This document shows, piece after piece, positions 6,348-35,966 of a DNA stretch of 41,025 nt (position 1 is the first letter of the stretch; every line of letters begins with the position of its first letter). The notes beneath the pieces are model-generated. The model was not told where the DNA came from. It searched no databases and worked only from the letters and a program-made list of their open reading frames with translations. A program made the translations under genes and the position numbers. This DNA comes from Psammoneis japonica (taxonomy: Eukaryota): NCBI GenBank assembly GCA_008632985.1, contig QPGO01000360.1, forward strand, positions 1 to 41,025. Direction: 5' to 3'.

Positions 6348-6407
6348 AGTGACAGCAGAGTAAAGTAGAATCGAGAGCTTAAGATCGATTGACTTAACTT
6401 GTAGATT

Positions 6408-11766: not shown

Positions 11767-12879
11767 GGCGATCCAGGAAACTTCGAAGTTTCGAAAAATA
11801 TTTAAGAGATTCCTAATTCCTATCAAAATGTCTCTACGTGGACCTCGTGTAGGATGGACAAAAGCTTCGAACATTGTGAAATTTCTTTCTCTATTGCCCT
11901 TTATACTGCCCCAAAGAAAGTTCGAAGTGTTCGAAGTTGTTCGAAGTGTTCGAATACTTCGAACACTTCGAAGTACTTCGAACACTTTCGAAGTTTCTAA
12001 TTCATAATAAATAAAAGTAAGGCAGGGAGACGAATGATGATGTCACGATGACATCTGTAGCCGAATGATGTACTTACTGCTGGTAGTACAACACGCGCGA
12101 TGCGGTACCGGTATGACATCTCACGTTGTTGTTTTGTGCTCTCTTCTACTCGAGTCTCGAGCATCTACCGGCATCAATGAGATGATGAGATACGGTACGT
12201 ACAATCGAAGCGACAAGTACAGGCAGCTACGAGATGATGTACTACAAGCTTATTACGCGCGCTTGTGGCTCAGAGTAGGCCTACGTAGGTTTTCTACGCC
12301 AAAGCACGACAAAACAACACGTGAATCCTTTGCCGTCGTTCATTTGTCAACCACGAAGAATTACCAATCCAATGAGACATATATGATCCGCAAGTACCTC
12401 ATTGATATAGCTGTACCCAAATGGCTTGGTAACTATTCCGGGTGGGCCCGAACTCGTTCGACGGAACGTGTCATCGTGGTGGTGTCGCGTGCCAAAAATC
12501 GGTGGTTGTCAATTCGTAATGATATATAAATGACTAAATAAATAATTAAAATTCAACTTGTTCGAACACTTCGAACTTGTTCGAATAAGTTCGAACTTTG
12601 TTCGAATAAGTTCGAAGTGACCAAAAGGGCAATATGAAAAGTTCGAAGAATAAGTGACTCAAATCAAAATCTTTGGAGGGCAATATGTTTGCGACAAAAC
12701 TTCGAACACTTCGAACAATATTCGAAAGCTTCGAACACACAACATATTTGTTCGAACTTTTATCTATTGCCCCTTGTTTATAAAGTACCAACAACCTACG
12801 AGCTCTGCACGTAGAATAATTTGCAGAAATGTCATGGAATATGGAATCTTTCGAAGTCTTCGAAGTTTCCTGGATCTCC
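11767..12879. mobile_element. Non-autonomous TIR element with subterminal TTCGAA arrays and 3-bp TSD (PIF/Harbinger-like)
   Basis: GGCGATCCAGGAAACTTCGAAG at left is the inverse of CTTCGAAGTTTCCTGGATCTCC at right. TTG flanks both ends. Dense TTCGAA repeats at ~11780-11995 and ~12560-12865. Confidence 0.7.
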
Positions 12880-13275
12880 TTGAATCACTTATGTGTTATT
12901 TTATGTGCAAATCATACTAGAGTCTACGTGAAGAAATCGCTGTCGATCGCTGAAACTCGCAAAAAATCATCGTTCTGTTCTTCAGAATTCTCGTTGGGTG
13001 ACATCCAAATTCGCATCGGCCAAAAAAAAAAAAGTCTTGTCCGGGAGTTGGTTTGGCTGGATAATACGATCAAATATCAAATTGGAAAAAAATATTCAGA
13101 AAAAATGAACCGCACACCGCACCCCCAGTTTGATTTGGCTGTGGGTTGCTATGTATTGTTGATTGATTGAACATGAGTAGGGATGGTGCGTTCATTCAGG
13201 GCAAGGTTCAGGGCTTCATTGGCGAATGTGTTTCGCGTGATCGCCACCTTGCAGTAGATTGCACATTTTTGACTA

Positions 13276-14930
13276 ATGGCCATGTGGGTGCTTGCTCTTT
13301 GTTTGTTCGCAACAGTTGCTGGTTTGCGCTCATGCTTGCTCTTGGCTCTGGGATTTGCTTTTCTTGTTGGGGCTGATGCTGCTATAAGCGACAGAAACGA
13401 AGCTTGCACAAACGAGTACCTTTGTTTAGGATCCAATTCTGAGTACATTATAAGTTTCTTGCGTGAAGGAGAATGCAGGCAGGGATGCTATTCACAAGAT
13501 GCACTAGCGCAAAACAATGAACTGTTCGACTGGTCGTGTGGTCCCTGCCCAACATTGACACAGAGTCAACAGAAAGCGCGCAGTCTGAGCGTCCTCAGCA
13601 AGGAAGAGTTACTGGCAGAACAAGCCAAAGTTCTATCGATTGATTGGGAATGGGTCGTTTTTAAATACTTCTCGGTGGATAACCTTCCGAGAGGGACCGC
13701 ACCGACGTTATCGGTACGAGCTGTCGTTGACCAAGAGCCTGACATTAAATTTTCCCGTGACAGACTCATTTCATCTTACTCCTACCCTGCGGGAGACGCA
13801 AGTTCATACTGGGTAGGGTTTGTAGCTTACCCCTACGACTCTGCTTCTTCACTCGAAGTGACTGTCAATAGCCAGGATGGAGATATCCTTGTCCAGGAGC
13901 AGGTGGTGTTTCCAACTATGTACGATGAATGGACTGATGTCACTATCGACAAGGATGGAATTCAAATCAACATGTCAGTTAGGAGAAGTAACACGCCAAT
14001 TGTTTCTTCAGATGAGCAAACTGCCATGGAAGCGAGTATGACGGAGAAGCTCATTGATCTCGCGAACGGGGAGAAGGCGTCCTTAGCCTACAAGATTAAT
14101 GACCCTGTGAATACCAAGGCGGTTCTATACTTTCCTGGGCGCTTTGATTCCTTCGGTCAGCCTCATTTGCTCGAGACCTATGCATCTCGAGGGTTCGATT
14201 TCTACACACTTGATCCACGGAGGTGCGGCCGGGTTGCTCAGTTTCTTGACGACCCCCACTATATGAACTCCTTGAAAAGCTTTGACGAATATAGGGAAGA
14301 GATTGACTACACCATGGAATTTATTCGGAGCCAAAAGAGCTACACTACAATTCTAACACATGGCTTTTCGACAGGAGCGCTGGCTGCTCTGAACTATAGA
14401 ATGCTTCTGGAAGAAGAGTCCGACGTTGACCCCTTTGACGGATACATTCTGGAGAGTCCCTTGCTTGATTGGGGATACGTTACGTCCATGGAAGAATTTG
14501 GGTTAGAGAATGCTGAGATTGCTCGCCTTGTTTATGGGGACATTGCCAGAGAGGCAACCGGGGTGTCGAGTTTTTCAACTTTCAACTGGATCCTCTACCG
14601 CCAAGCTGTAAATTGGAAGACGCTCATTGACGGACATACAACGTTTGATTATGCAGAAGCATGCACTACTGTGATGGAAAAGATAAACAGTCGATTCTGG
14701 CTCTTTTGGGGAGCGCAATCACGGGGAAACCTGTCCTTTCCCTCACCTCTCAAGGTGATGATGTCGTGATCCCCGAAGAAACTATTGAACGATTGCGCAA
14801 TATTTCAAGAGATGTCGAGTCAGTGATGTTGGAATACAATAATCATGCTTTGTTCAAGTCATTCACAAGGGCGATGACCGATGATGCAATCCATGCGACC
14901 GCGTCGTGGCTCGACCGCAGGTTCGGCTAG
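13276..14930 (+). CDS. Secreted alpha/beta hydrolase (lysophospholipase / serine aminopeptidase S33-like); 1-nt frameshift ~14700
   Basis: Hydrophobic N-terminus, VLYFPGRFDSF, DPRRCG, nucleophile elbow HGFSTG, ILESPLLDW; C-terminal GDDVV and NHALF lie in ORF 14661..14930. Confidence 0.8.
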
Positions 14931-15122
14931 AGCAGCCAAGTTGATTGTTTTAGTTTGCAGTCGCGTTGGTCGAACATGAAAGCAAGCAACTGCTGTCTAC
15001 TCTATAGCATAGCTATGTACAGTAGAGAGAAAAGTGACTACTACTAGAAGTGCTGTCTGATAGCAGAGAGGGAACAAAGTAGACTACATAAAGGTATCGA
15101 CGGTGTTACCGGTCGGTAGCTA

Positions 15123-15864
15123 CAAGTAAAAAACCGGTCTGTCCTCTGCCTTTTGGCATCTGTGTAAAAGTCGATTTTGTTTCCAAAATCGATTCGCTTT
15201 TCACTGTGCAATGCTTCTTACGTCTTCTAACATTGTCAATTGACGTGCTCCTATGCCTGTATTTGCCAGGTTCACGGTTCTGAACACCATTGTTACTATC
15301 GCAAGAAGGGCCTTTTTTCGTTCCAAGAGGACAGACCGGTCGTCAGTAGATTTCTACGTGGCAACATACCGAGAAATTTACACAGTTCTTTTTTTGCATC
15401 CTTCGTCAATCGCTTAGCCATTATCTCTCGCAAGGGCAGAATGGCAAGTCCATAATACACACTCGTATCGAATAATGCGGGTCCATAAGCTCTCCTTCGT
15501 TGTTGTTTTGCCTTATTACTCGCATTTCGTATGCAGGCATTTGTCACGAATTGGAAATGGACATGTAAAAAACATCCATCAATGAGGATAATTAATGATA
15601 GAAAATCTGTGTAAATTCTCAAACGGTAGATTTTTCTTAGAAAATGGCGATGTGCCGCTTTTGGCCCCAATTGTGCCATGATGCAACACTCTTTTAGCCC
15701 GCTGTTTTCGCAAAGATCTCTGTTGACCTTCTGACCGATGCCAGCAGACAGGGTTTGCATGTGTGACAACGGGAAGCCCTTCTTAGAGTGGTTTTACACA
15801 GTTTGCTCTTGCAAGAGGACAGACCGGTCGGAAGAGGACAGACCGGTTTTTTACTTTTCGTATG
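15123..15864. mobile_element. Probable MITE with imperfect terminal inverted repeats
   Basis: AAGTAAAAAACCGGTCTGTCCTCT (~15124) is the inverse of AGAGGACAGACCGGTTTTTTACTT (~15833). The motif AGAGGACAGACCGGT recurs at ~15326 and ~15814. Confidence 0.6.
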
Positions 15865-16167
15865 TACAGTAGGTCTACAGTACTGTAGCGAGAAAAGTGA
15901 GCCCTACAGTACCTGCGCCTGCCCTACAGTATGTACGCGTATACGCCGGTATCATAGCCTTACGCACTCAACGTATGGCTACACTGTATGACATTCTTAT
16001 ACTGTATTCAGATATTGTTAAAACACATGACACGTCACAAGTGCCACCACACAACACATCATTTCATAACATTCCTTCTCTCTATCGGAAGAATCCATCG
16101 ACCATGACCTACCCCGTGACCGCCTTGGTGACCGCGACATGTGGTGTTCCCTGTTCATAGTATAGCC

Positions 16168-19100
16168 ATGACGATGGAAAACAGCAATAAGACTTACGCC
16201 TCGTCACCAAGCAAGGAAAAAGAATCTGGGACGAATAATAGTACTTCTGATTCTGAGTCCAGAGGCGTGGCGTCGGATCGGACCATTCTAGAATTCCAAG
16301 ACAGCGGTAGCATAAGCCACGACTTCTCAGTCAGTGCATTATCGGACGGATTTCGCTCTAGCAGCAAAGAAACCTTGGTTTCCTCAAAACGGCTATCTTA
16401 TCAATTTCGTAAGCCATCAGATCGGAAAGTTAACAGTCTCGACGGGTTCACAATTAATCGGCTCAATTTCGGGAATTCGATTTTATGGACGCGACACCGA
16501 AATCAAACAACTCAATGAGGCGCTAGATTCTATAGAGAATAAAAAACAATTGGTGCTGCTAGCCGGATATTCCGGTACGGGAAAGACGGCACTGGCCAAG
16601 ACTTTGCAGCATCGTGTGAACAAATTGAAAGGCTTGTATGTGGAAGGCAAATTTGACCTAAACTTGCGCAACGAACCCTACTCGGCCTTGGCACATGTTT
16701 GTGGGGCAATTTGCGCCCGAGTCCTGTCTCTTGAACATGAGTCGTCTGATACCTTTCGTACGATTCTCACTTCGATTGAAGAAGGTCTAGGCCCTGAACT
16801 TGAAGTGCTGCTCCGAGTGTTTCCCATCTTGGAAGAATTAGGGAGTGTTTCCGCCAAGCATTATGATGCTCAGAATCCAGTGGACGCCAAGAAAAGACTC
16901 AACTATGCCTTTTGTCGATTAATACGAATCGTTGTGCATTTTTTTAAGCCGTTTGTTATGGTCTTGGATGATTTGCAGTGGGCTGATGCACCCTCACTTG
17001 ATCTGTTGGATGCCATATTGATGGACCGTGACATGCAGATGTTAGTTGTTGGGATTTATCGATCAAATGAGGTCAACGAAACGCACATGTTGTCGAGCAA
17101 CCTTCGAGACTGGCGGATCCGTTCGAAAATAGGCGATGTATTTTCTATTCGAGAGATCAATGTCGGAAATCTCGACTTTGAAGCTGTACACAAGTTTGTC
17201 AATGACATTCTGTCCACTTCTGATACACAAACCCTCGGATTGGCATCGCTGTGCCAAAAACGGACTCATGGCAACGTGTTTTTTCTCACTCATTTCCTAC
17301 GTCTTTTGCATCGCGATCAGTTGTTGCAGTACAACTTTGGTACACTCAAGTGGACCTGGGATCTGCATGAAATTGAATTAAAGACCAAGGCAAGTGAGAA
17401 CGTTGTTGACTTGCTGTTGCAAAAAATGCACGGATTGCCAAGCGATCAGAGTGAGATTCTTCGAGTCGCCGCTTGTTTGGGTGCAACCTTTGAAGAAGAT
17501 ACCTTGATCTTGCTGTTAGGCGAGCTGCGCGGAGGCATAGAAGCAAGAGAGGATAATACGGATGAAATTAAGAGCGCGCTGAAAGCACTAGTGGTTGAAG
17601 GCTACCTTCATGAGGAGGAAGGGACTAAATACACTTTTTCGCATGACAAGGTCGAAGAGGCCGCCTCGCTTCTCACACCTACAGAGGCTGGTCGTCATGT
17701 CTTCCACCAGGAGGTTGGTCAGACATTGTTGACTTCTTTACGTCCGAAGGATTTGGAATCAGCTGTTTTCATTGTGGTGAATCTGTTGAATGAAGGCGAC
17801 TTGCCTGTTGACGAAGCGAAACGAGCCGATCTCGCTCAACTGAATCGTCGAGCATGCACTAAAGCCATGACCGTTTCTGCTTTCGAAGCAGCTAGCAACT
17901 ATGCCTCAAAAGGGATTGCTCTATTGGGAGATGCCCCCTTTAAAAACGACTGCGACCTTGCTCTGGATCTCTTCTCAACTGGCGCCGCAGCGGAAAGTTG
18001 CCTTGGTAACACGGAAAGAATGGAAGCCTACTGCCAAGCTGTCATGCAAGAGACTGCTCTGCCCATCAAGGACAAGCTTCGAGTCTATACGACTTGGCTG
18101 GATAGCCTGGCGAATCGGGGACACATGGAAGCGGCGGCTAAGGAGACACTGCGTCTCTTGGAAGAGTTTGGTATTCGCTTTCCGCGTAGTAGAACGATGC
18201 AGTCTTTACGCACCCTGACTAACATCATGAAGGTCAAGAAGGCTGCCACCAAGGGTAGCTTGCTTCAAGATGTCTTGGCACTCCCTGTCGAAAAGGATCC
18301 GACTAGGATCAAACTGCTTCATTTGATGGATCGCCTTTCGGTCTATCTCTTTATTTCACATGATGAGCTTATGCCCCTGGTGATGTTTCGCAATTTGAAT
18401 GGACGCTCAAGTATGGTAGAAACGATGTGACTCCCACCGCGTTGACTACCTTGGGGATTATCTTTGCAGGCATCTTGGGTGATCTGCAGTTGGGGGCTGA
18501 GTTTGCCCAGACAGCTCTGAAACTTATCCCAAGTCTTCACCTCTAATCGAGTCGCGGACTCTTTTTGTCGCCCACGGCTTTGTAGTGCCGTGGACTCAAC
18601 CCATGCGTAACCAGCTTAAACCTTTACAGCGAGCTTACGAGTCAGGGCTGTGTTCCGGCGACGCGGAGAGTGCGTGTTGGGCGATTTATGCGTTTTATCA
18701 TATGCGATACTTGACAAGCTTTTCCTTGGATTTGTGTATTGCCGACGTTGAAACTTACATGCCGCAAATGAAGGACTTGAATCAAGTCGTCACCTACCGC
18801 AGTACAGTGGTGAATTACCAAATTTTATGAATTTGGCGGGACGCTCCGAAACAGACCCGCTGTCTTGGTAGGAGAATATTGCATAGCCGAGAACCATAAG
18901 GCTTGGTTGGCTGAAGATCCTTTTTATGAACACCATTGTCGCATCTGGATTGTTACGTTCGACACTATACGGGGAACACGAAGAGTGTGCAAAGCTTGCT
19001 GTCAAATACGGACCGAACGCTACTGTGAAATCGAACCCTGGCGCTTTTTCGATGAGCCTCTTTGAAATCATCACTAAAGGGGTATCTTCCTTTATATCCG

Positions 19101-19511
19101 CACGCCAGACAGGAAAGAAGGCTTACCGCAAGATTGCAATACTATTCGGAAGCGAATCAAGGATTGGATCGACAAGGCAATCCCAATGTTACTCATTTCG
19201 ATGCTTTCTTTGATGCAGAATTTGCCGCTCTAAAAGGCAAGAGCTTTGCTGCCATCAAGAGTTATCAAGTTGCCATCATAATTGCAGCACGTGGGGGGTT
19301 GTTGCTTGATGCTGGCTTGTTTTCAGAAGTTCTTGGGGAGTACTTGCTTGATCAGGGCAATGACACGGATGAAGCAACATTTAGGCTACAAGAAGCAATC
19401 AAATATTATGGAGAATTTGGAGCAAAGCGTAAAGTCGAAATGATTGAAAGGAAGCACCGCGAACTTTGGCCCAAGCCTTTGGTCGTAATGGCCATAGAGA
19501 CGGCGCAGTAG
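16168..19511 (+). CDS. COG3899-like P-loop ATPase (AAA_16) with helical/TPR-like C-terminus; several 1-nt frameshifts
   Basis: YGRDTE, Walker A GYSGTGKT, GKFD, Walker B VLDDLQWAD, YRSNEV, THGNVFF, FSHDKVEEAA; C-terminal EAIKYYGEFGAKRKV. Pieced together from ORFs 16141-19511. Confidence 0.85.
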
Positions 19512-19887
19512 CAGTTTTATGTAGCTAGCTGAGCACACATATTTTCCCTGAATTGTAATCACTACTTGGGGGGTTCTTTGTTCTCTTTCAACAGCAGCGT
19601 ATGATACCGGTATATACCGGTATAGATTCTTCTTGCTAGCTACCGGTACTATGGAGGCTTGCTCTCGACCAGTTTCAGGCGGAAATCGCTCGGTACCTCC
19701 GTAAGTATCCACCACATTTGATAACTTTCGAGCTCTACCATTATGACTGTCAGCAGAAGTGGGATAACTGCTTTTAAAGAGTTAAAACATTCGCGAGAAA
19801 CAGGTGGAAGAAAATGCGTCATGGCCGTGCGCGTCAAGAGCGAGTATCTGAGGACAGAATGAGACATAGACTGTTAAACAACGTACG

Positions 19888-20893
19888 TTATGATAATTTC
19901 CGAATCAAGCGTTGCTGTTGTATCGCAAGTGAGGTTAACCATTCCAAGGCGGCACGAACATTTCTTCCCGTCTTGGCTGATCCCACAAATTGCCCAACCA
20001 GCGGACTTAGCTCTACGGGCATGATTGTAGTAGAATTCTCGTTGCAGTTGCAAAACACCAAGATTGGTGTTTCTTCATTGGGCAGTTCCTTGCGTAAAAT
20101 GTTAATGAGAGATGTAGGTTGTTCTTTGTTGGGAACACAAATAATCACAGCATCCGCGTCGGCATAGTACTTGGGCCAAATGTCCCTCATTTTGCCACCC
20201 AAATCCCAAAAGTGACACTTTGCACCACAAATGTCGACACGTGCCAAGTTCATACCAACTATAGCATAGAAAACAAATAAGAAAACAATATTAAGTTGTT
20301 ATGGCTTTGTTCTGAAATCAAATCATCTTCAGAAAGCAAACTACTTACTTGTTGGTCTGATTTTGTCCAGAGACAGCATATGGGCGCCTTTTTTCAAGTC
20401 ATACTCTTGTTCCTCCTCTTCCTGTGGAGCATTATTTGCCGCAAAACCGTTTGAAGTATCGTTTCCTTCGTCAATTGGAATGTCCTCCATACTACTCGAC
20501 CAGCTCGCAGTTCTCTTTGAAGTGCGGTGGTTATTGCTGTTGTTTGCTTTCACCAATTTTCCTCTTCATCATCATCATCATCATCCTCCAGTTTGACTGC
20601 ATATTTTGCTGGTGCTGGGCACAGTCGTCTCCTTAGTGGTTGTCGTTTTGGTGGTTCTGCTGGCTCGTTGGGAACAGCGTCTTGTGCTTGTGGTTGGCTC
20701 GTACTCCTACTACTCTCCTCCTGAGAAGAAGCAACAGCAAGAGTCAAGTCATTGATTGTTTTTCTAGAGAATTCCGTCACTTTGATGCGTTCCAACAGTG
20801 TCGATTTTCCTACACCTTCATTGCCAATCACAAGAATATTCAATTGACTTGGCGCCCAATACCGTTGATACAAACCCGACGCTAACTAAACAT
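19888..20893 (-). CDS. ARFRP1: ARF-related small GTPase (ARFRP1-like) with long insert; intron 20259-20348
   Basis: MFSLASGLY N-terminus (after 1-nt correction), GNEGVGKST, RPT|IGMN across a GTAAGT...TAG intron, WDLGG, WPKYYADADA, SAKTG. Confidence 0.8.
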
Positions 20894-21059
20894 GGTAACC
20901 TCAACGGAAGCAAGAAAAAATTTCTGCTGATTTCAGAAATGACTGCAGGGAAAACATGATAACGGCAAATTAACGGATAGAGCTCGAAGAGCTTGCAAAT
21001 CTTTCGACTTTCGAATCATCGTCTTGCTCAAGAATCCTCCCCCAGCCCGAACATCATTG

Positions 21060-22600
21060 TAGTTTCAATCTGGAGACAACCTGGTGGGCCACACCATCTG
21101 CCACCTGGGGCTTCCAGCGATCTCAGATGTCTCCAATAAAACAGGGCTGTGGCACCAGAGGCATCCGCAGAGGTGCGGGCTGGCTGTGCACAACGTCCCT
21201 CTCTCTCCCCGCTTTGTTTTCTGCCTTTGATTGTCTCCTCCTCTGGAGCAAGCTTTGACACAACAAGGCAGGATCCAGGCCACACTTGAGAGTGTAAAAC
21301 ATGTACCAGGAAGTGATTCAAAGGGTGTGTGCCAGCATCTCAATGAACTGACAGAAAAAACTTGGCTGCAACACGAGGACCCTCTGCCCTTCGGAGCTGG
21401 CAGGAGGGAGCGGAGTGCAGCAAAGCTCTGTCAGGGGGGATTTTTTGACATTTGACACTTTTGTGGGTGTCTGGTTGTGCAGAATGTGACCAACTTTGTG
21501 CAATGATGGCACCACAAGTGTTCCGTGCTGTGTGGCTGGGAGTCCTCCACACCCCTCCTGTTTGTGAAATTTTCATGCCAAGAAAGACATGCTCCAGCTG
21601 TGGATTGATGGGGCATGCAAAAAAACATGTGTGCATGCACCCAAAATTTTTGCATGGTCACCAACTTGGGATCAAAGTTGTGAGTGGAGAGCATTGTTTC
21701 ATCCATTTGGAATTGTCTTGATGCACCAAGCAGCAGCAACAAGACCCGCTGCACGCAGCGCACCAAACAAGCACAGAGCGGCTCCTCATTTCTCCCATTT
21801 TCATTCTTGAGCCAAGGGTGGGGGGAGGCATGTCCCAGGTTTGTCCAAAATTGCCATTGTGATGTTCAACAAGGCCACCACAAGTGCTCATTTTTGAACA
21901 CAAAAATTGTTCTCATTTGTGCTCAATCTTGCACAAAAATGGGACACTGGGTGTGGCACATTGATGACGGCAGTCATTGATCTTTTTCAAAAATGCAGTT
22001 GTCCAGTGTGGGACTCCAAATGCATGATGTTGATCACTCAACACAGGAGAGCACAATTTTAAAGCAAGTCTCATGCTGGCATGCCTTTGCAGCACAAACT
22101 TGTTGTGGCTTGTGTTTTTCCCCTAGACAAAGCCCGGTGAAAAAGTCAGAAAAACCATGCAAAACATGAGCTGTCTGGCCAGCCAAGCTCAAGCCAAAAA
22201 AATTTGCATGCATCTCAACACAGAGGTTTGTTGAACTTGAGAGCCAAGTCTTGTTCATTTTTGTGGTCATTTGGTGTGTCAACAAAAACTTGTGCACATG
22301 ATGCTGCAAACAATCAGTCGTTGCAGGGAGAGTCTGCAAAATAACACACAAATGTGAAGGCATGCTTTCTTGTGTTACACAAAAAGCACTTGGAGCCATT
22401 GACAAAAAGCTTTGTGCCATCAAAACTCACAAAAGAAACTTCACACACTGGGTGGCACTTGAGGCTCTGCACAGAGCAACAAGTGTCTCTTGCACAAGTC
22501 ACCATGGTCTGTGGTGTGTGGCTGTTTTTTTTGACAACTTCTTGAAGCTTTGCTGCTGCTTTGCAAGTGGCACCCAATCAACAATGTGAAGCAGATGTGA
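21060..22600. other. TpA- and CpG-depleted degenerate block, possibly DNA-transposon relics
   Basis: Abrupt switch to TG/CA-rich sequence. Weak VLHTPP...GHAKKHV resemblance to a Tc1/IS630 transposase C-terminus at ~21540-21630. Confidence 0.55.
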
Positions 22601-23583
22601 CACATGCTTTAAAGGAAATGACAGTGTACAGTGTTTTCCTCATGATTGCCAAAAAATGGACCTGTTGCATTCACAGCGTTTTGCCAGGTTTTTCATGCAT
22701 CACAGAGAGTTGGCAGCCAGATGAAGTCACCAAAGTGGATCTGCATGACACAGAAGCAACTGCAGAATGGGTCAACTTGGGTGCATCCTCAGACTCATTG
22801 GGATTCCTGGCATTCAAAGCTTGCAACGCAAGGCCCCACTGCAGTCTTCATCACAACGAACTCCAACCCAAAAGTGGAGGACTCTGTGATGTTCTGCCTC
22901 TTAGAGCAGTGCAAGATGGGTGCCCGCTGGATGAATGTCAGGATCCCAGTGTGGGACCTGCACACGTCACACGGCATCCAGTGTGATCAGCACTCACAAA
23001 ACAAGTGGCAGTCATGCTGTTCCCATGCACTTCCGGCACATTCAGCGGCAATGGTTCAGCCGTGCCGGGGCAGAATTCCTCTCAATCACATTTTGTGAAA
23101 TGACTCTCATCAAAGATGGGCTCAGTGTTGTCAAACATGCAAAAATGTGGAGCACCTCATCCAGATGTCCTGCTTGTGGTGCCACAAGGTGGGACAGCAA
23201 CAAAAATGTCAATGCATCCCACACTTCAAAACTGCCCATTGGAGCACCCCAACAAGACCTTGGTGACAGTTGACTGTTTTGGCATTCAACTCAGGTGAAC
23301 TGTCCAGTTCAGGTCTGTGTCCTGAGCTCAAGGGTGTTGATGCCTTTGTCAGAAGACACCTGTCAGTCTTCTTAACCTCTAGCTTGACATCAGCTAATGC
23401 CCTTTTGATGCACAAGTCAGAGGACATAGCCCAGCATGTCTTACCATCTGCATCAGACAACTGATGCTTTCTGATTTGTGCACCCAGGTGCTCTTCAGGT
23501 TCACAGACACTTCTGTCATTCAACGTGTACCTAGAGCTCATGTAATCCATGACCTTTTGGGGTTCATGGCCGATGCCAAGGAC
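22600..23583 (-). pseudogene. Relic RT/RNase H of a second Copia family
   Basis: VLGIGHEPQKVMDYMSSRYTL, EPEEHLGAQI, WAMSS, GHRPELDSSPEL, NCHQGLVGVLQWAV, HTGILTFIQRAPILHCSKRQNITESSTFGLEFVVMKTAV. Confidence 0.85.
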
Positions 23584-25469: not shown

Positions 25470-27110
25470 CTGTCTTCTCCCGAATCTTGTCAATCTGTTG
25501 GAGCATCTTTGCCATCCGGTGAGTCGCAAACACAATTGCAAACACAGGAACTTGACCCATGCTCTCAACATGATGTTCATTTTGCTCAGACGGCAGCCGC
25601 GAAGCTCCGAGGTTGTTTTGCCTTTGACCAGCACATCCCCAGTGCCAATCATTGGAAGGTGCACTCAACAACCTCCCAGACCTGGGAGAGCCACCGATGG
25701 CAGAGACCAAGAAGGTCTCTGACTTCCTGGAGGCTGACAGAAGAAAGTGTCATGCTGGGGGGTGGCAACCAGGCCAACCTCTCCATTTTTGAGCTGCATG
25801 ATCAGCACATTGCACAAAGACTCCAGAGTTGACAATGCGAAGAGCTGTGACTGCTCATCAGTGCAGTGGCCAAGTTTGAACTGAAGCCAGGAAATGAGAG
25901 TGAGATGAACAGCGTGTTGTGTGTTGGCAGCAACAGATGCCAATTTAGACAAAGAGGCATTGGAAAATGTGAGCAATTTTCACAACATCAAGCTGCAACA
26001 AAGACCAGATGTGCACGCAAGCTGCCCAAATTTTGTTCACAATTTTGGCAGCTTTTTGCAACTCAAGAGCTGTCAAAATCATCTGATCACTGACAAAAAT
26101 CAAGTGAAGAAGCCACAGCTGTTTTAAAGACATTTGACGAGTTGAAAAGCAAGCAAGAGCAGTTGAAAGCACTGCCTCAACTCAACAACTGTGAAAACAA
26201 TGCAGCTGTTTTGCACACTCCAATGTGCACTCTTTTCATTGCTGCACGGCCTGTGTGTGCCATGCATTTTGACTATGAAGACCTCTGAAACCACCACAGC
26301 TTTGACACCAGCTCAGAAAATTTGCACGAGGCACCAAGTTTGGCAGGCTCTGGGCTTCAAGATTTTGGGTGCTGGCCTTGGCAGAGGTGCAACTCAAAAA
26401 AGGTGGCACAAACAAATGCTGTTGGCAGCTTCAACACACATGCATTGCAATGTGTGCATCATGTGACTGTGCCAGTGCAAGCTGATGGTGCGCACAGGTG
26501 TTGGAGCACAAAAGCACAGCAGCGAATCTGACTGTGGCTGCGTTGGACCCAGCTGAGGTGTCAAGAGTTTTTGCTGAACAGCAGAGCCCACTGGGCTTCA
26601 AAAGTGAGAAGAGTCCATGGCTCTGTCTGAGAGTGAAAGAGATGGCATCAAGCTGCCGCTTGTTTTGCTGATGTGTGGGGGAGAAGGGCCTGTGCAGCAG
26701 ATGATGGGCGCTGTGGCGCACGCCAACAGAGAGCACAGAGCTGTTGCTTCCGTGCTGGTGAAAGAACAAAAGCAGAAAATGCACCAAGTGGCAACCAATG
26801 GACAATGACCAAACACAAAAAAACAAGCACCATTTGGGGACATGTGAGGCCAAGGTGGGTGCCACAATGTGCAAAAGCCCTTGAGCCAGAGCCAGAGCAG
26901 TGTGGTGCTTTGACTGTGGTGGCTGGGCACGACAATTGAGAGCCTCTGGCAGAGCTGGCTGCACCTTCATTCCCCCTTCTGCTGGCCACCTCCCCGCTTA
27001 TTTTGTCCTTTCAGCTAGAAATGGGTGTCAGATTTGGTCAGATCATTGCTGCACTTTTCCCTTCCATCTGAGAAGTTGCTCTGCTCGCAAAGCACACCCG
27101 CATGCATAGA
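25470..27110. other. TpA- and CpG-depleted degenerate block, probably a decayed transposon
   Basis: TA is nearly absent, with sharp compositional edges next to normal genes. No confident protein match. Confidence 0.6.
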
Positions 27111-27268
27111 CAGACAGAAAATCATTTGACTCATTACCAATTACACTGCCCACCATTTTTTCTGCCGCCGACAAAAAACAAAACAGAAACGCTCCCTACT
27201 CCCCGACAGTATACTTTCTTTATAGTTAGTCTCTAATCGTTGTTGCTTCATAGCAAACACTTGTTACC

Positions 27269-28845
27269 ATGTCTCCAGTCGACGAGGATTTGCGTTTTGG
27301 GATTCTTCAATATCTCCAATCCCATGGCGAATTCGAAAAGAGCGCCAAGGCGCTCAAGCAAGAATTGAAAAAGTTGTATGGAATCTCCAACAAGCCCACG
27401 GTGTTTGGAAGTTTGACCCTCTTGCCTCCACCGCCACCGAAAAAAGCGTCTCTTCCACCACTGCCCAATAACGATGGATCGGAAGCGGATACAGAAGACA
27501 GTGATGACGACGACGAAGAAGAAATCATGCCGTCGGGTACAAAACGAAGCAACTCCAAGGATGCGAGTGAAACAGCAAAGAAAGCCGTACCGAAACCGAA
27601 AGCATCCGCAAATAGCTCAAGCAGTTCTAGCAGTAGCAGTGACTCCTCCTCCTCGTCATCATCATCTGAAAGTGAAGAGGAGACTACCAAAGCAAAAGCA
27701 GTCACCAAAAAGAGTGAATCGAGTAGCAGCAGCAGCAGCAGCTCTTCGTCATCGTCGTCGGAAAGTGAAGAAGAAGCCTCCAGAACAAAAGCTGTCGCCC
27801 AAAAGAAAGAATCTAGTAGTAGCAGCAGTAGCAGTAGCAGCTCATCCTCATCATCATCGGAAAGTGAAGAGGAAACGACAAAGCCAAAAATGGTCGCCAA
27901 GAAGAGTGAATCCAGTAGCAGCAGCAGCAGCAGCTCGTCATCGTCTGAAAGCGAAGAGGAAGCAGACAAAGCAAAAGCAGTCACTAAAAAGAAAGATTCT
28001 GGCAGCAGCAGCAGTAGCAGCAGTGACTCTTCCTCTTCTTCTTCGGAAAGTGAGGATGAAGGAAAGGTAAAGGCGACCGACAATAAGAGAAAGCATGACA
28101 GCAGTGGTAGTAGTAGCAGTGATTCATCATCTTCGTCTGAAAGCGAAGACAGCAAGAACCTCTCGCCCGTACGGAAAAAGTTGAAATTGGAAAACGTCAT
28201 TGAAGATAAACAAGAAGGCAACGATTCAGCAAAGAAGGAGGAATCTCTCGTTGAAGCTGCTCACAAGGTGACATCGTCCGACGATAGCAGTGACGTAAGC
28301 GACACGGATGTGAGTGATGTATCCGATGTATCGACCGATTCTTCGTCCGACGACAGTTCTAGCAGCAGCAGCGACGACTCGTCGTCATCATCCGAGGACG
28401 AGGAGGAGGCACGTAAACACCTCGAGGCAAAAAAGGCGGCGGCACGGAAAAAGGCACAACAAGCCGCCAAGGCGGCAGCAAGCTGGACACCCAAAAAGTC
28501 TCCAAATAATGACGCGGCTAATACAACGCCCATTACTACAAAACGTGGCACAGACGGTGCTCAGGCTTTGTCGTCTGGCAAACCCTTTCAACGGGTGGAT
28601 GATGAATATTGGGGCGAGGCGGCTCTCCAACACGGTGGGGCATGGCGGACAATTCGTATGAAGGTGTCTTTGGGAACGAAGGATTCGGCTCCAAGGCGTC
28701 TGAAAAGCTACTCACGGTGCGTGGTAAGGACTTTCGACATGAAAAGACCAAGCGCAAGAGAAGTTATAATGGCTTTGCAAAGGCGGGAGGTGCAATATCC
28801 ATGCAGAGCAATTCTACCAAATACACGTATTCTGATGAGGAATAG
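27269..28845 (+). CDS. NOLC1: Nucleolar phosphoprotein SRP40/Nopp140-like; 1-nt frameshift ~28640
   Basis: LisH-like ILQYLQSHGEFEKSAKAL; alternating poly-Ser/acidic and Lys/Ala blocks; SRP40_C-like KPFQRVD, DNSYE, GKDFRHEKTKRKRSY. Confidence 0.9.
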
Positions 28846-29220
28846 AATGCAAAGTTGTGGTGTGCTGTAGAAAAGTTATTAGTGAAGGCGTACTGCACAA
28901 AAAGAGAAATCATCATTTGCAGCTACTATCTGTGCTTTATGTCGAAGTGTTGTGGGGCTTGGGAGAAGAAATTTAATATGTCTACATACTGCATGAGCCA
29001 GCGAGTTGTGTGCCAAGTTTACAGGATTGTCATGGAGTATTCTACAAGCGTAAAAAAAAAACATGCTGTGAGCAGTGAGGAGTAAGAGTATTTATCACTT
29101 GGCGTGCCCGGGATGAACCTGGTACTTCTACTACCTGTAAGGTTACTTGTTGAGCTTGAGATTACGATAGTAGCAACGGTACGTAGGCCCTCTACAGTAC
29201 ACTAGTTGTAGAGAGTAGCT

Positions 29221-30300
29221 TCAAGTTTTCTCTAGAGTGATTAGAGAGTCTATGGTATATTGGAAGGGATGCGTCTGGGGAAATGTGTGGCGGAAGGGTC
29301 GCGCGAAGCGCGCTAGGGGATGGGGAGAAAAAGGGTGGACCGAGAGTACGGACAGACGGTTGAGAGGAGGAGTTGGTAACAGCAGGGTGGCGGAGGAGGA
29401 AAGCTTGATGCGTAGAAAGATGGGTGGAGAGAGCAAAGCCGAAGTTAAGACTGAGGATTTGGGAGGCCCAAAGTGATGGTGTTGAGGCGTGATGTGAAGA
29501 GCCGAAGCGGTCTTGAGAGAGTTGTTTCCAGGCCCCGCGTTGGAGTTGGCAAGGAGATCGGAGGGTGCGAGGAGTGAGTTGGTGCAGGCGGAAAAGGATG
29601 GCTGAGAGTTGGAAAAGGAGGCAGGACTTGTCCAGGGTGGTTTAGGAGGAAGGGGTGGCATGGGGGAGGAAGTTTTGGCAGAGGTGCCGAAGAAAAAGGT
29701 GTTGAAATGGCAGCCGATGCCGCCGAGGTGGTCGAGGATGAAAGGGAGAAGGAAGAGACCGGCTTGGTTGATGGCGTCAATGATGTTGGATCTGTGAGTG
29801 GATGATGCAGAGCAACCAAGGAGCTTGTCCCATGTGCTGCTGAGGTGAGCCTTGTTGAGTGGGTTTTCAGGGACAGGCAAACCAGGTGCAGGAAGCGGGG
29901 CAGCTCTCGAGAGGCAAACAATCGCGTGGCAGGACAGAGGTGACAAAAAGCGTTCGCCAAAATGACCGGGACATCGGGGCATGTCTCAGGATGGCACAAA
30001 AGCAATGCCAAATGGAAACTTGGCTGTCACATTGAATGAAGGCGAGAACCACGTCTTTCAACATGTGAACGAGAAAGATCAGATCGAAGCGACTGAGCCT
30101 GTGCAGGTCGATCTAGGGCCCCAGCTGCCGGTGATGTTGACGAGAGTTGTGAGATGTGATCGTGCACTCTTTTGCCAACCAACCTGTGGGCAAAAGAGCA
30201 CCACACTCCCACAGGAAGTCAGACCAACCGGAGGTGTGGGAGCATGAACAACACGGTTGTTTGGCTCTTCAACCCATCCACCATCACCCCAGAAGCAACC
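29221..30300 (-). mobile_element. 3' fragment of a non-LTR retrotransposon (CRE/RLE-like), degenerate
   Basis: LFLLPFILDHLGGIG and, after a frameshift, RFGSSHHASTPSLWASQILSLN resemble recalled C-termini of diatom non-LTR ORFs. TA loss increases toward 30300. Confidence 0.5.
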
Positions 30301-30306
30301 TAAGAA

Positions 30307-33300
30307 TGGATTGTGTCGGGATCTGCAATCCTTTCAACAACTGTGTCAGTTCCAACAGAGGGAAGCACAGTTGTTCCCGCCATCCCTGCTGGCTCCGGTG
30401 TGAGGTTCAGTGCCTCTGACACTCGGTTGACACAAAAAGGTGTGATTGGGTTCACCCTTTGCTGGCAGCAGATCAACTCATGCATCAGGCACTTGTTGGT
30501 TTGGGTTGTGGCTGTGCAAACAACACCTGTGATGACAAATCAATCAAAAGCATCATGTGGGTTGCACCTGCAGCAGATGCCACTGTGTGCATCGACTGTG
30601 ATGGCGATGGATCATTTGACGACTCTTTTCAAGCTTTGGAGCTCTGGTCAATCAAAATCTCTGACAACTCAGATGCAGACATGACTGGGGCAACTGCATT
30701 TGCTGCTGCTGGTGGTCCTGATGACCCAACGGTGGACATCACAGTTGCTTGGGACAGAACCCCTTTGTTTTGCATGTTTTTCAGAGACTTGCTCATTGGA
30801 CCTCAGAACAACTGCACCCCCTTTGCCAATGCTTTTGGCTGGAAAGACATCGGCTCTCCTCCAGGACATTGATGGACATGGAAAGGCTGACTTGGGTGAC
30901 TTGTTGTTGCGCGCTGTTTGAGTGGCAAACACCGGAAGAGTTGGTGCACTGACTGGTGGCTGGAATGTCACAAACTTCTGCAATGCCATGTTGGATGCCA
31001 GAGACTGCATGGCAAACACTGCCATGTGCAATGATGGAACTAAAAGGTTTCCATCCAAGACAAAGCATCTGGAACTCCCTTCCCTCTTGGGGGGCTAAGG
31101 TCTGACCAGTCCGTTGATCTTGGCCACTGAAGGGGCACATGAAATGACATTCAAAGTTGCACAAAGCAAAACATTGATGATTTGGAAGCAGGCGTGGATC
31201 AAATTTCCAGTGCTGGAGAGATCAATGGAAACAAATCTGATTGGTTTGAATCTGCAACCCTGCTTGATTTTAATCCAAACATTGAGCATGATGGCGCTGA
31301 TTGTCCCAGATCAGAGTCTTTTGGAATGCAACAAGAAGATCCGGTGACACATTGCTGCAACATGATCAACCTGGAGACACCCAGTTGAGCAGTGTCAAAG
31401 TCTCAGATGCTGTTGCAAGCCTTGTGCTCCGACGGCATTCAGCCCAGGCAGCTGGCAAGTGCTTGCATTCCAAACTGACGTTGAACGCAGTCAATTCAGT
31501 GCTGCCACAGCATCAAGGATCACAAACCACAGAGATGGAGAGAAATGATTGTTGATCAATTCATGGACCCTGTCACATCATCTGATGCTGCCGGTGCAGA
31601 TGCGCTCCTTGCACCAACAGCAAATGACAAAAATTGCGCTGCCAATGAAGACACCCCAATCCAAGTTGCTTCCCCTGAAAATCTTTCGAATGACAGTGAT
31701 GAGAACTGGAACAATGATTTGATGGTGACTGTCTTGATGGCACCTGCAAATGGATCTCTTGACCAGAATGCGCCAATGTGGACTTCAATGGATTGGATTC
31801 TCACACGTGCAAGGCCTGCAACCAAAACGGCCCATGTGACCAAGCGACAGTCACGGTCATTGTCAAGGGGATGAACGATCAACCCGCTGCTCTCAACAAC
31901 TCAATCGTGACTTCAGAAGACACTCCAGCAACAATTGACATTGCAGACAATGATCTTGACATCAATGGTGACCTTGTCCCATTCAAAGCTGCTGTTTTAA
32001 CCAGGCAGACAAACAGGACAGTGGATGACAACAGCAATGGCACCATTGCGCACACCCCACATGAAGACTTCAATGGTGTTGATGCGTTCGCACACCACCA
32101 AGTGCGAGACACTGACAGCAACTGCACCAGTGCAACCACAACTGTTGCACTTGATGGTGTGGACAATGCACCTGTCACTTTGGGTGACTCCATCATGACT
32201 CCAGAAGACACTCCAGCAACGATTGACATTGCAGACAACAATCTTGACATCGATGGTGACCTTGTCCTCAGCACAGCCGCTGTTTTAACCGGGCCAACAA
32301 ATGGATCAGTGGACAACAATGGTGATGGCACCTTTGTGCACAACCCCCATGCAGACTTCAATGGTGTCAACATGTTCACATGTCAAGCGTGCAACACCAA
32401 TGGTGACTGCGCTGCTGTGACCACAACCATTGCAGTTGATGCCATGAACGACGCACCTGTTGCTTTGGATGACTCCATCACAACTCCAGAAGACACTCCA
32501 GTGATGATCAACATTGCAGACAAGAATGATCTTGACATTGATGGTGACCTTGTCCCAAGTGCAGCTGCTGTTTTAACTGGGCCGACAAATGGAACAGTGG
32601 ACAACAACGGTGATGGCACCTTCACACACACCCCAGTTGAAGACTTCAATGGTGTCAATGCAATCAAATGTCAAGCGCGCAACACCAACAGTGACTGCAC
32701 TGCTGCAACCACAACAACTGCAGTTGAGGCCATGAACAACACACCTGTTGCTTTGGACGACTCCGCCATGACTCCAGAAGACACTCCAGCAACAACTGGC
32801 ATTGCAGACAATGATCTCGACATCAATGGCGACCTTTTCCTGAGCACAGCTGCTGTTTTAACCAGGCAAGACTTTGACGGCAAAGATGCACTCACACATC
32901 AAGCAGTGCGCACAATGCCAACGGTGACTGTGCACTGCAGCAACTGTCAATCTTGTTGTGCTTGGTGTCAATGATGCACCAGTTGTTGTTGTGGATGCAG
33001 TGAGCACCAACAAGGACACTGCGGTGGATGTCAACACAGTCACCAATGCTCCAGAGGATGTTGATGGCAACCTTGATGCAACTTCTGCAACAATTCTGAC
33101 ACCACCTGAGAATGGCCAGGTTGTCAACAATGGCGACGGAACATTTGCATGCACTCCGGACCCAGACTTCAATGGCAAAGACTCCTTCACCTGCCAAGTG
33201 TGCCACATTGACCAAGAATGTGCAACAGCTGCTGTCACCATCACTGTTGAACCTGTCAATGACCCTCCTGTGGCACAGAATGGCAAATTTGCCATGGAAG

Positions 33301-34490
33301 AAGACGATGTGCTTGACACTCCGATTGGCGCAATCTTGCTGAATGACAGTGATGACAAAAATGAACTGAACCAATTGTCTTTGGTGGTTCTCACATCAAA
33401 TGCGTTGAACGGAGCTGTGGTCAATCAAGGAGATGGAACACTTTGGTGCACTCCCAACCCTAATTTCAATGAAGTTGATGAACTCACCTGCGCCATTTGC
33501 AACACTGGTGGTCTCTACAACAGTGCCCTTGTCACAATCACTGTCAGCTCCATCCTGGATCCACCCATTGCCCAGGACCTTGGACTTGTCATTGACCAGG
33601 ATGCAGACTTGTTTCTTTCCGAGGCGGCTGGAATCAAGCAATGTCTTTCATGCAAGGACGGCATGTTGGGATGCACAAACTGTTCAAACGCTGGCATTTC
33701 TGATGTGGACACACCACTCGGCACCTTGATGATTTCCACAATGGAAAGCACGAGCCAGTTTGGTGGAGACATTGATTCCACATCCAATGGCAAGTTTGCT
33801 TGTGAGCCAGCAGAAGGCTTTGCCAGCATTGATGACGCTGAGTGCTTGGTTTGTGATCCTGAGGCAGGGTGTGCATGACACTGGAATGATCAAGATGATT
33901 GTCATGCCTGCAACCAAGCACAATTGTTCTGTTTGCTGTGGAGACTGGAGTCAGGTGGTCACTTTTACATCTCCAACAATTTGGGTTGAGAGAGTGTGCA
34001 GATTAAAGAGTTTTCTCTCATTTTTGAGCACCTGACCAGCGGTGGCACATGCGCTTCCGGCACTTGGACGCCATTCGAGGTGGTTGGCTGCAAATTTGAC
34101 CATGCCACAAGGACCGTGCTTTGCTCAAACAACATGGTTGTCAAATTTCAGCAGTGCAAGGCCAACACACACATCCCACCAGGTGCAGAGACTCATGCCA
34201 TGGCATTGACAGATGTTTTGGCAGCATGTCAAGCAATTCAATCAAGAGCATCATCTCTTTGAGCATGGAGGGAGCAAAAGGTGAACTCAGGGATCCAAGG
34301 GAACCCAACGGTTGCATTTCCCAAGGCAGATGCTCCAAAGGTTGCAGCAAAGGCAAGGGCAAGGGTTGAAAATGCAGAAGAAGTCTCAACTGATGCTCTT
34401 CCTGCACCCGCTCCAACTCCTGCCAGCAAGGGCAGAAAAGGAAAAGCAGTGAGAGCCGGCAAGGGAGGAAAAGGAAAACAAGCAGCATGA
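30307..34490 (+). pseudogene. Hypermutated gene for a large extracellular protein with tandem ~95-aa cadherin-like / Big_9 (tandem-95) Ig domains and a GK-rich tail
   Basis: Repeated NDAPVALDD..TPEDTP..I..NDLDIDGD..LTGPTNG.V.NNGDGTF.xTP..DFNG.D.FTxQ units at a ~285-290 nt period; ends GKGGKGKQAA*. Has stops and frameshifts; the 5' limit is approximate. Confidence 0.85.
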
Positions 34491-35167
34491 AAGCAAGATC
34501 TTCCATCACCACAATTGTTGCATTGCCCCCAAGCATTTGCTCTTTAGATGCAACACAAAAGAGCAAATGAGCCACTTCAAAAGTCAACAAGATCGTCATC
34601 TTCATCTTCCCCAAACCAGGCTCAGCTTGTGCAGTGGGCTCTTTCATTGCCGCAATTGTTGGATTGCCCACCAACATTTGCTCTTTGGGTGCAACACACA
34701 ACAGCAAATGAGCCATTGCATGAGTCAACATGATCATCATCTTTGTCCTCCCCAACCAGCTTGGCTTGCAGGGAGCTTCCCACAAGGGTGGAAAAGAAAA
34801 ACCAGCATGAAAGTGCAGGCTTCCATTGCAGCAATTGTTGGATTGCCCCCAAGCATTTGCTCTCTGAGCATGACAGCACACATGCCATCACATGGGTCAA
34901 TGTGATCGTCATCATCTTCGTCTTCCCCAACCAGCTTGGCTTGTGCCGTGGTGGGGAGCTGCTCAGTTTTCTGTGCACTTGCTTGGCGCTCATCCTGCGT
35001 TGAAACCAAGATGGGTCATGGGGCCACTTGTGCTTGTTAAAACCAGTTGTTGGAGTCCGCAACATGACTGCTGGCTCAAAAAGTCGTCAGAAAGAATGTT
35101 GTGACACCACTCTCGACTCTTTCTCAGGATGTCTTTCAGGATGTGCTGTGAGATGACCTGTGCATCT

Positions 35168-35208
<41 letters not shown>

Positions 35209-35540
35209 TGTTTTCAAAGCTCCTCATCCCACTGCTGTCTCGCATGGCAGGGACCTGCTTTTTCGCGTTGCGAGGAGCGGATGTCATGCAAGAAAAGCAC
35301 AAAAGCCTTTGCGTGCACAAGTCAATGTAATCATCAGTTTTGTTTTCCCATCAAGCTCAGCTTGCAGGGGAGCTTCTCAGTTTTCCATGTTCTTGGCACT
35401 CCTCCTGCGTTGTTGAAACCGAGGGGCTGCACGTGCTTGTTAAAAAACAGTTTGTTGTTGGAGTCCGCAACATGCCCACCTTCTGACTCAGAAAGTCAGA
35501 AAGAAGACCACCACACACTCTCAACTCTTCCTGAGAGCAT
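34483..35540. repeat. Degenerate satellite-like repeats (~140-180 bp subunits)
   Basis: CAATTGTTG(C/G)ATTGCCC at 34512, 34653 and 34832; CAGCATGAAAG at 34483 and 34803; 34895-35125 resembles 35320-35540. Confidence 0.75.
35170..35208. repeat. (CT)n microsatellite
   Basis: Seen directly in the sequence. Confidence 0.95.
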
Positions 35541-35966
35541 CATCACTCTCGTGTTCTTTTTTCATTCTCGCGCATTTGTGTTTTTGCGTTTCGAGCAGGC
35601 TGCGGAGCAATTTCACGCTCTGCGCATCAGCCCTCCTCTTTGTGAGCACTTCGAGTGCACCCACACGATCAACGCCACTACATGACGATGTCTAATGCAC
35701 AAAATAGGATTAATTGAAATGCGCCGTGAGCTGCGTTCGCAACATCATTGTCGCAACACTTTTTGTCCTCTTGCGTTATTTTTCGACGAATTCAACGTGG
35801 ACGGACGACGGACGGGCGCGACGAGTTCGAGGCTGTACTCATTCGACCTCTCTCTTGCATTCAAAAGATCTTTTCCACGTGTCCTGTCCTACAAATTCCA
35901 CGTGAGATCCACATCTATGTTCACCGTTCACCTCTCACTTTTGTGCTGTTGGCCGTTGCATCCACC

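Follow-up and report, generated by a model that had tools for sequence, protein, structure and literature searches.

In a 41,025-nt stretch of the genome of Psammoneis japonica (assembly GCA_008632985.1, contig QPGO01000360.1, positions 1 to 41,025, forward strand; hereafter the window), TA dinucleotides have been converted almost completely to TG or CA in four separate blocks, and the TAs that survive lie mostly in the context YTAR (Y, pyrimidine; R, purine). YTAR is spared relative to the contexts with TAY on one or both strands (YTAY, RTAR and RTAY), and this flank dependence is a preference and not an absolute rule. We read the region at 30300–34560 as silenced foreign bacterial-type DNA in a diatom-like nuclear genome that was hypermutated in place, from TpA to TpG/CpA, by a process that reads T-A-Y, and we put the probability of this reading at roughly three in four.

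Between 30300 and 34560 (4261 bp) only 13 TA dinucleotides remain, 11 of them YTAR and two YTAY, with no RTAR and no RTAY (by tetramer, CTAA four times, TTAA six times, and TTAG, CTAC and TTAC once each). CTAA was found at 30300–30303, 31040–31043, 31095–31098 and 33460–33463 (TA at 30301, 31041, 31096 and 33461), TTAA at 31270–31273 and 34003–34006 (TA at 31271 and 34004), and TTAG at 34544–34547 (TA at 34545). The other four TTAA sites, at 31997–32000, 32285–32288, 32573–32576 and 32858–32861 on the plus strand (TA at 31998, 32286, 32574 and 32859), belong to a repeated TTTTAAC and supply the Leu codon TTA of the motif AAVLT at the same column of units 1, 2, 3 and 4 of a tandem repeat. Two sites are exceptions to the rule: a CTAC at 33515–33518 (plus strand, TA at 33516), which is the sole remaining Tyr codon of a decayed gene described below, and a TTAC at 33965–33968 (TA at 33966). 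An original prediction, made from the letters of the sequence, had stated that the TAs of this region are nearly all CTAA, TTAA or TTAG with one CTAC and one TTAC as the sole exceptions; the dominance of YTAR among the survivors is confirmed, as all 13 sites are present and none had been overlooked.

The undepleted, non-transitional remainder of the window (25.7 kb) served as background, and YTAR is the rarest class there (14.7% of TAs). From this background, 26.6 YTAR, 45.0 YTAY, 55.1 RTAR and 54.1 RTAY (~181 in total) would be expected per 4261 bp. The observed 11 of 13 YTAR differs strongly from the background share (binomial p = 4e-8; Fisher p = 5.6e-8); a variant of the background test with the tandem sites collapsed was run on 9 of 11 (p = 1.3e-6), where the right collapse is 8 of 10. 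When the four blocks were pooled (11.8 kb), survival relative to background was 0.30 for YTAR, 0.040 for YTAY, 0.039 for RTAR and 0.013 for RTAY, a 7- to 23-fold difference between YTAR and the other classes. Among YTAR tetramers in the same blocks, survival fell from TTAA (0.50) through CTAA (0.26) and TTAG (0.19) to CTAG (0.145), and strand-symmetrised trinucleotides followed the order TAA (0.18) > TAG (0.08) > TAC (0.04) > TAT (0.01).

These counts were fitted with a Poisson model covering ten depleted or transitional zones, in which the loss of A on each strand depends on its 3' neighbor, the two strands contribute additively, and exposure is allowed to differ from zone to zone. With a 3' T as reference (1), the fitted rates were 0.59 for C, 0.16 for G and 0.04 for A, and the context model was far superior to a context-free one (likelihood ratio test, chi2 = 108.8, 3 degrees of freedom, p = 2e-23). 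In a two-class version, TAR decayed at 0.118 of the TAY rate (~8x slower), with the four-rate model fitting somewhat better (p = 0.006). Edge zones with partial depletion are biased likewise: YTAR makes up 11 of the 15 TAs at 9000–9800, and the zone at 6100–7200 retains 11 YTAR and nine GTAR, NTAY and ATAR being absent. Sparing of YTAR is relative, since the block at 7150–9000 has no TA left. The counts of NTAN tetramers in depleted blocks and background thus bear out both earlier claims, that YTAR and TAY/RTA are depleted unequally and that the bias is a preference, with TAR decaying ~8x more slowly and YTAR nevertheless wholly lost from one block.

All four blocks (approximately 7150–9000, 21000–23350, 25550–27000 and 29400–35550) combine TA near zero with low CpG and a 1.5- to 2.4-fold over-representation of TG/CA. 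The block enclosing the 13 survivors (29400–35550), TA-poor, CpG-poor and TG/CA-rich by dinucleotide counts, holds 0–2 TAs per 200 bp as against 5–20 outside, and in 1-kb windows its observed/expected ratios are 0.03–0.06 for TA, 0.26–0.37 for CG and 1.55–2.45 for TG and CA (windows 30001–35000: TA 0.03–0.06, TG 1.56–2.45, CA 1.55–1.86). Pooled and strand-symmetrised, the blocks contain 0.07x the background level of TA and 0.34x that of CG; no other dinucleotide is depleted, CA/TG is the only enriched one (1.53x), and the rest lie at 0.87–1.25x. The block at 25550–27000 retains four TAs, each YTAN. The most saturated block (7150–9000, 1.85 kb) has no TA of any class, against 79 expected from the background of the model, and very few CGs; no coding sequence was recognised in it, and its five long open reading frames (ORFs) gave no Pfam domain match. 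CpG in this block numbers nine at 7201–7400 and 0–4 per 200 bp from 7401 on.

Conversion of TA to TG/CA makes no in-frame stop and removes TAA and TAG, so that hypermutated DNA becomes full of long false ORFs. Stops in all six frames of 30300–34560 comprise 239 TGA, 18 TAA and 6 TAG, compared with 306, 169 and 167 in an 8-kb control (12000–20000). A Pfam scan of 29 ORFs from the depleted blocks returned cadherin-like repeats as the sole matches. Within the block at 29400–35550, a family of three or four repeats of 140–180 bp occupies 34440–35540 and is accompanied by a (CT)n microsatellite (35160–35210); its last copy, at the block edge, retains GTAA and TTAA. The family was considered as evidence for the direction of change and set aside, as its differences are equal both ways and no outgroup is available.

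The cadherin-like matches belong to a decayed bacterial-type tandem-95 gene (31452–33878, plus strand; Big_9 and Cadherin_4/5 repeats, Pfam Big_9 1e-43), now split into three frame pieces (31452–31760, 31763–32950 and 32952–33875). Eight repeat units were matched, some of them partial, the four youngest having a 288-bp period, and the gene carries frameshifts and one truncated unit. Its best relatives are giant bacterial adhesin-like proteins (34–48% identity, the top one 48% over 55% of the query), and identity did not exceed 45% among the best 150 of 39,997 matches in 1.84 billion representative proteins. No close unmutated relative was found in these searches, and codon-level inference was limited to Tyr; judged by protein similarity, 31452–33878 is foreign-type DNA with no close intact relative. 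No domain was recognised in the other three blocks.

Comparison with bacterial units sets the direction of change. Two columns are almost always Tyr among 66 bacterial units (97% and 98%); at all 13 corresponding positions in the window the residue is His or Cys, as expected if TAY codons had become CAY or TGY. Tyr accounts for 1 of 807 residues of the decayed gene (0.1%, against 2.8% in the 66 bacterial units), with Cys at 3.8% vs 1.0%, His at 1.6% vs 0.7% and Met at 2.0% vs 0.4%. Because Tyr is lost and Cys and His are gained relative to a bacterial outgroup, the depletion is mutational conversion of TA to TG/CA and not a compositional preference. Direction was also sought in columns where the four 288-bp units differ between TG and CA (19 mixed columns, nine with R..R flanks); this measure was dropped, since CpG decay yields the same pattern (ACG to ATG or ACA where bacteria have Thr). 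Both strands are hit about equally, as indicated by the Tyr codons in RTAY context (five now CAY, six TGY) and by the raw counts of 487 TG and 509 CA.

A second line of evidence comes from a full-length Copia-type long terminal repeat (LTR) retrotransposon (261–6769, minus strand) whose gag and pol frames are long and open (RVT_2, gag_pre-integrs). One LTR (272–619, minus strand) has 14 TAs and 19 CGs and appears unmutated, while in the other (6422–6769, minus strand), which adjoins the TA-free block, 7 of 14 TAs have changed to TG or CA, all within 6504–6760. The latter was taken as the mutated copy because its TA content is halved, that of its twin being at background density, and because its neighbor is TA-free. 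The pair differs at ten substituted positions, nine at a TA or TG/CA pair and one at AAT. The changed sites are GTAA to GCAA, TTAT to TTGT (three times), GTAC to GTGC, ATAT to GTGT and ATAT to ATGT; one more site reads GTGC in one copy and GCAC in the other. None of the five YTAR sites has changed (hypergeometric chance ~0.01), nor has any of the 19 CpGs. That the LTRs keep TTAA, TTAG, CTAA and CTAG had been pointed out in the original prediction and is correct, with a GTAG and a GTAA kept besides: the mutated copy retains TTAA twice and TTAG, CTAA, CTAG, GTAG and GTAA once each, the last two being the only kept sites with TAY on one strand.

Since one half-mutated LTR belongs to an integrated element, the process acts on integrated DNA and reaches beyond a single element, and since half of the TAs are lost with CpG untouched, TA conversion outpaces CpG decay and can be separated from it. 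The Copia gag retains six RTAY Tyr codons, which puts the boundary of the mutated domain within the LTR, near 6500. It is as if hypermutation spreads from the neighboring block rather than aiming at the Copia element. Gag itself was examined as a candidate hypermutated sequence against relatives of 50–65% identity; four Tyr-to-His/Cys differences were found, but with the six RTAY Tyr codons intact gag is not hypermutated and its Tyr differences represent ordinary divergence.

Which of the two bases changes is a separate question, because survivor counts are predicted to be identical for T-A-Y to T-G-Y and for R-T-A to R-T-G. The informative sites are those with TAY on one strand only, and all seven clearly assignable changes among them are TAY to TGY (equivalently RTA to RCA; two-sided binomial p ~0.016). 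Four are LTR products (TTAT to TTGT three times and GTAA to GCAA) and three are former Tyr codons of the tandem-95 gene (ACC TGC at 33192, ACC TGC at 33489 and GCT TGT at 33801). The earlier proposal that the target is TAY and the product TGY agrees with these seven sites; a product direction of TAY to TGY is supported by the sequence comparisons, though not settled. The same prediction had described a few YTA to YCA changes in a miniature inverted-repeat transposable element (MITE). The MITE-like palindrome at 11264–11657, which borders a TA-poor zone and consists of two ~167-nt arms (segments 91% and 85% complementary) flanking a short center, has two to three arm differences that may be of that form, but their direction cannot be set. 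Nor did the palindrome serve as evidence for direction as a whole, its 14 arm differences being equal both ways with no outgroup.

The mechanism we propose would have the A of 5'-T-A-Y-3' changed to G, with T at +1 slightly better than C, G ~6x worse and A ~25x worse. The same event on the opposite strand would read R-T-A to R-C-A. RTAY would be the first class to vanish because it offers a target on both strands, RTAR and YTAY would offer one target each with one predictable product, and YTAR, having no TAY target and decaying ~8x more slowly, would prevail among the survivors until its own erasure. We infer that the agent would be a DNA adenine deaminase whose pocket accepts T-A-Y, turning A into inosine (read as G), and that it is presumably aimed at silenced chromatin. 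No deaminase gene was found in the window, although no search aimed at deaminases was made. The decay of CG to TG/CA in the same blocks is a separate and slower process, probably following from cytosine methylation of the silenced domain. The evidence base is one sequence of one locus.

Several points weigh against this account. Expected counts and rates presuppose that the blocks began with background TA contexts, which is unverifiable for foreign DNA. Two YTAR tetramers are poorly fitted by the additive model (CTAG, 14 observed vs 5.3 fitted; TTAG, 6 vs 11.6), which makes an extra effect of the base 5' of T possible. The block at 21000–23350 is the least consistent with the rule, its 11 remaining TAs including four RTAR and two GTAC beside four YTAR and one TTAC. 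The LTR comparison has no outgroup and takes its direction from TA density (14 vs 7) and from the TA-free neighboring block. One A-to-G change in the mutated LTR, at 6752, lies in A-A-T and not in TA, next to a mutated ATAT. AAT (0.78x) is also the only non-TA A-centered trinucleotide that is mildly low, and together the two may reflect weak activity on A-A-T. Product direction stands on seven sites; the CAC-CAC pair at 32093/32096 could hide one YTAY to YCAY product, and the two to three palindrome arm differences would be YTAY to YCAY if TA is ancestral, a direction that cannot be set. An estimate of the TGY/RCA share from composition, which is noisy and assumes an ancestral composition, gave 0.72–0.78 for 30300–34560 and 0.50–0.75 for all blocks, and was reversed in the block at 7150–9000 (0.21–0.37).

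The last of these points bear on the alternative that the hypermutation is the same but the decisive flank lies 5' of the edited A, two positions away, giving R-T-A to R-T-G and T-A-Y to C-A-Y. The base that confers specificity would in that case adjoin the T:A pair that does not change. By symmetry this would leave identical survivors, and the excess of RTGR plus YCAY, which is not small (175, vs 242 for the other product class, over all blocks, and larger in the block at 7150–9000), as well as the possible YCAY products at 32096 and in the palindrome arms would suit it. All seven one-sided sites are instead YTGY or RCAR, with YCAY and RTGR at zero, and we consider a 5' flank unlikely.

Somewhat less credible still is error-prone repair synthesis in silenced chromatin resembling that of DNA polymerase eta (Pol eta), with G misinserted opposite template T at WA (W, A or T). 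Pol eta makes A-to-G errors at WA, most strongly at TA, and the one AAT to AGT change in the LTR together with AAT at 0.78x would fit such an activity. Both TA and AA should then have been mutated, yet AA/TT is unchanged in the pooled blocks (0.95x) while TA is at 0.07x, and AAN trinucleotides lie at 0.78–1.08x vs 0.01–0.18x for TAN. A strong dependence on the base 3' of A is, to our knowledge, not a feature of Pol eta hotspots, and near-complete conversion of whole domains on both strands is unlike patch repair.

We think it very improbable that the remaining TAs are not survivors but were newly made after erasure by C to T at YCA (G to A at TGR), e.g., with an APOBEC-like TC/CC preference. 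Changes of TCA to TTA and of CCA to CTA do give exactly YTA, and ordinary G:C to A:T pressure must remake some TAs. Random re-emergence from the 996 TG/CA sites of the region, however, would give Y..R flanks in 25.5% of cases and not in 11 of 13 (p = 1.4e-5; with the four tandem sites collapsed, 8 of 10, p = 4.8e-4). The TTA Leu codon occupies the same column of four diverged units, a column that is Leu in six of six units, so these four TTAA sites were inherited, and five of five YTAR sites are identical between the two LTRs.

An artefact of sequencing or assembly, in which modified bases (methylated A next to T, 5-methylcytosine at CG) are miscalled as transitions in long reads, has a similarly slight chance of being right. 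Modified motifs cause systematic transition miscalls, and TA and CG are affected in the same blocks. The frameshifts that split the tandem-95 gene into three frame pieces and its truncated unit suggest real decay, however, and sites of one class ended as TG in certain copies and as CA in others. All 19 CGs are intact in an LTR with half of its TAs erased, and the comparable signature published for the alga Bigelowiella natans (below) comes from mutation-accumulation lines sequenced on Illumina NovaSeq.

Least plausible of all is ADAR-like A-to-I hyperediting of RNA followed by reverse transcription and insertion: its need for a 5' U/T resembles the neighbor preference of ADAR, but the two strands are hit alike (487 TG, 509 CA), one LTR of an integrated element has changed relative to its twin, and graded block edges cross element boundaries. 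The hot-spot of ADAR1/2, a metazoan family (PMC3239186), is given as 5'-UAG (Table 1, PMC10661471), whereas TAG is spared here (survival 0.08 vs 0.04 for TAC and 0.01 for TAT). The process proposed here would share with ADAR its A-to-I chemistry and the favoring of U/T 5' of A, and differs from it in having the opposite 3' preference and in acting on genomic DNA, on both strands and after integration.

The closest known system is that of the chlorarachniophyte B. natans, the sole match in a literature search for this signature that included diatoms. In mutation-accumulation lines of this alga, where the mutation rate was raised ~1000-fold, 231 of 302 nuclear mutations fell in two integrated viral regions, and 230 of these 231 were A to G or T to C, all of those on TpA; the genome contains 124 clusters of 1-kb windows depleted in TpA and enriched in CpA+TpG, the targets are integrated giant-virus, virophage and transposon-like DNA, and Mettrop et al. 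suggest an ADAT2-like deaminase (bioRxiv 10.64898/2026.01.13.699255). The blocks of our window reach the cluster thresholds of that preprint (a run of three or more 1-kb windows with Rho TpA <=0.43 and CpA+TpG >=1.52). As for A to G or T to C on TpA, 9 of 10 LTR differences lie at a TA or TG/CA pair, and 13 of 13 conserved Tyr positions are now His or Cys. Both systems thus feature A:T to G:C at TpA giving TpG/CpA, blocks that are TpA-poor and CpA+TpG-rich, targets of non-eukaryotic or transposon-like origin (here 31452–33878) and a proposed adenine deaminase; they differ in the host, which here has diatom-like genes. The main text of the preprint is silent on flanking context, CpG, diatoms and stramenopiles (bioRxiv 10.64898/2026.01.13.699255), so that three features seen here, namely the T-A-Y rule, CpG decay in parallel and the extension into an LTR, go undescribed in that main text. 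Our own comparison of the two systems concerns the signature as seen in a single window.

Fungal RIP (repeat-induced point mutation) is likewise an in-genome, domain-wise transition hypermutation of repeats and foreign DNA, with a dinucleotide preference and action on both strands. RIP converts CpA to TpA and so raises the TA content and introduces stops, whereas here TpA becomes CpA/TpG and TA, TAA and TAG are erased; instead of a gain of TpA by C to T at CpA, we found TA at 0.07x, CA/TG at 1.53x and Tyr codons lost. A young, intact Copia element with an untouched interior also indicates that being a repeat is not sufficient here. APOBEC3 offers another deaminase-type defense with a short context and a strong dinucleotide footprint. 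It converts C to U on nascent minus-strand cDNA and leaves strand-asymmetric G to A changes, whereas the changes here are A:T to G:C, strand-symmetric and made in place.

Adenine deamination in single-stranded DNA is known from TadA and the adenine base editors (ABEs) derived from it. The TadA/ADAT2 site is listed as 5'-ACG, for TadA the A of the tRNA-Arg anticodon loop (Table 1, PMC10661471), and the TadA-derived variant ABE8e A48E is reported to prefer YAC (PMC13109818). T-A-C is a good target here as well (survival 0.04), although T-A-T is better still (0.01) and a 5' C is rejected, CA as a whole and CAC/CAT in particular being enriched. The comparison with Pol eta and TadA/ABE contexts that the original prediction had envisaged therefore yields an overlap with TadA at T-A-C only and a mismatch with the WA motif of Pol eta, and these systems serve as analogies only. 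Stramenopile-specific proteins of the deaminase fold with predicted editing or mutagenic roles have been described by Iyer et al. 2011 (PMC3239186), as have CDD/CDA-like stramenopile proteins carrying tudor domains, and may be regarded as candidates only.

The intact genes of the window are probably those of a diatom-like host and not of Bigelowiella, a reading that draws on one gene family; a protein search with a host hydrolase contributed nothing to the taxonomy. As far down as E = 1e-58, every taxon-named relative of an ORF for a STAND ATPase (16316–18430) is a diatom (Amphora, Bacillariaceae, Skeletonema, Epithemia, Cylindrotheca, Seminavis, Thalassiosira and others) with at most 41% identity, the best relative overall reaching 66%. 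The window also encodes an ORF with an HA domain, which we take to be typical of diatoms. Elsewhere, the zone at 9801–11000 holds six TAs against ~51 expected with CpG near normal, and is overlapped by a minus-strand ORF (10124–11248) of 374 codons that is coiled-coil-like and contains no Tyr, five His and four Cys; the zone may represent an early stage, with TA erased ahead of CpG decay, or a gene of odd composition. Clusters of short repeats built on TTCGAA (e.g., TTCGAACACTTCGAA), both direct and inverted, lie at 11925–12740 in a stretch rich in AT, TA and CpG. An ORF at 27254–28870 (plus strand) has a LisH motif and four tandem ~93-bp copies encoding Ser/Asp/Glu-rich units, and shows no TA depletion.

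Hypermutation that erases TpA has so far been reported once, in the 2026 preprint on a rhizarian alga. What is added here is a flank rule in quantitative form, T-A-T >= T-A-C >> T-A-G > T-A-A, in which the TAY-bearing strand carries the product. This rule is a fingerprint that any candidate enzyme must match, and it argues against both an ADAR-like (UAG) preference and Pol-eta-like WA mutagenesis. In practical terms, hypermutated DNA in which TGA is essentially the only stop yields long false ORFs, Tyr-less and rich in Cys and His, that gene finders may call. That a diatom-like genome bears the signature suggests a process extending beyond a single lineage. A more tentative idea, which we hold to be possible though doubtful, is that diatoms and chlorarachniophytes have in common a dedicated DNA adenine deaminase of genome defense, a 'reverse RIP' across lineages of the stramenopile–alveolate–Rhizaria (SAR) group. 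If true, such a defense would be aimed at silenced foreign DNA and would spread along chromatin into neighboring elements, and it would inactivate genes by missense changes alone (Tyr to Cys or His, with loss of TATA and of TAA/TAG), creating no new stops.

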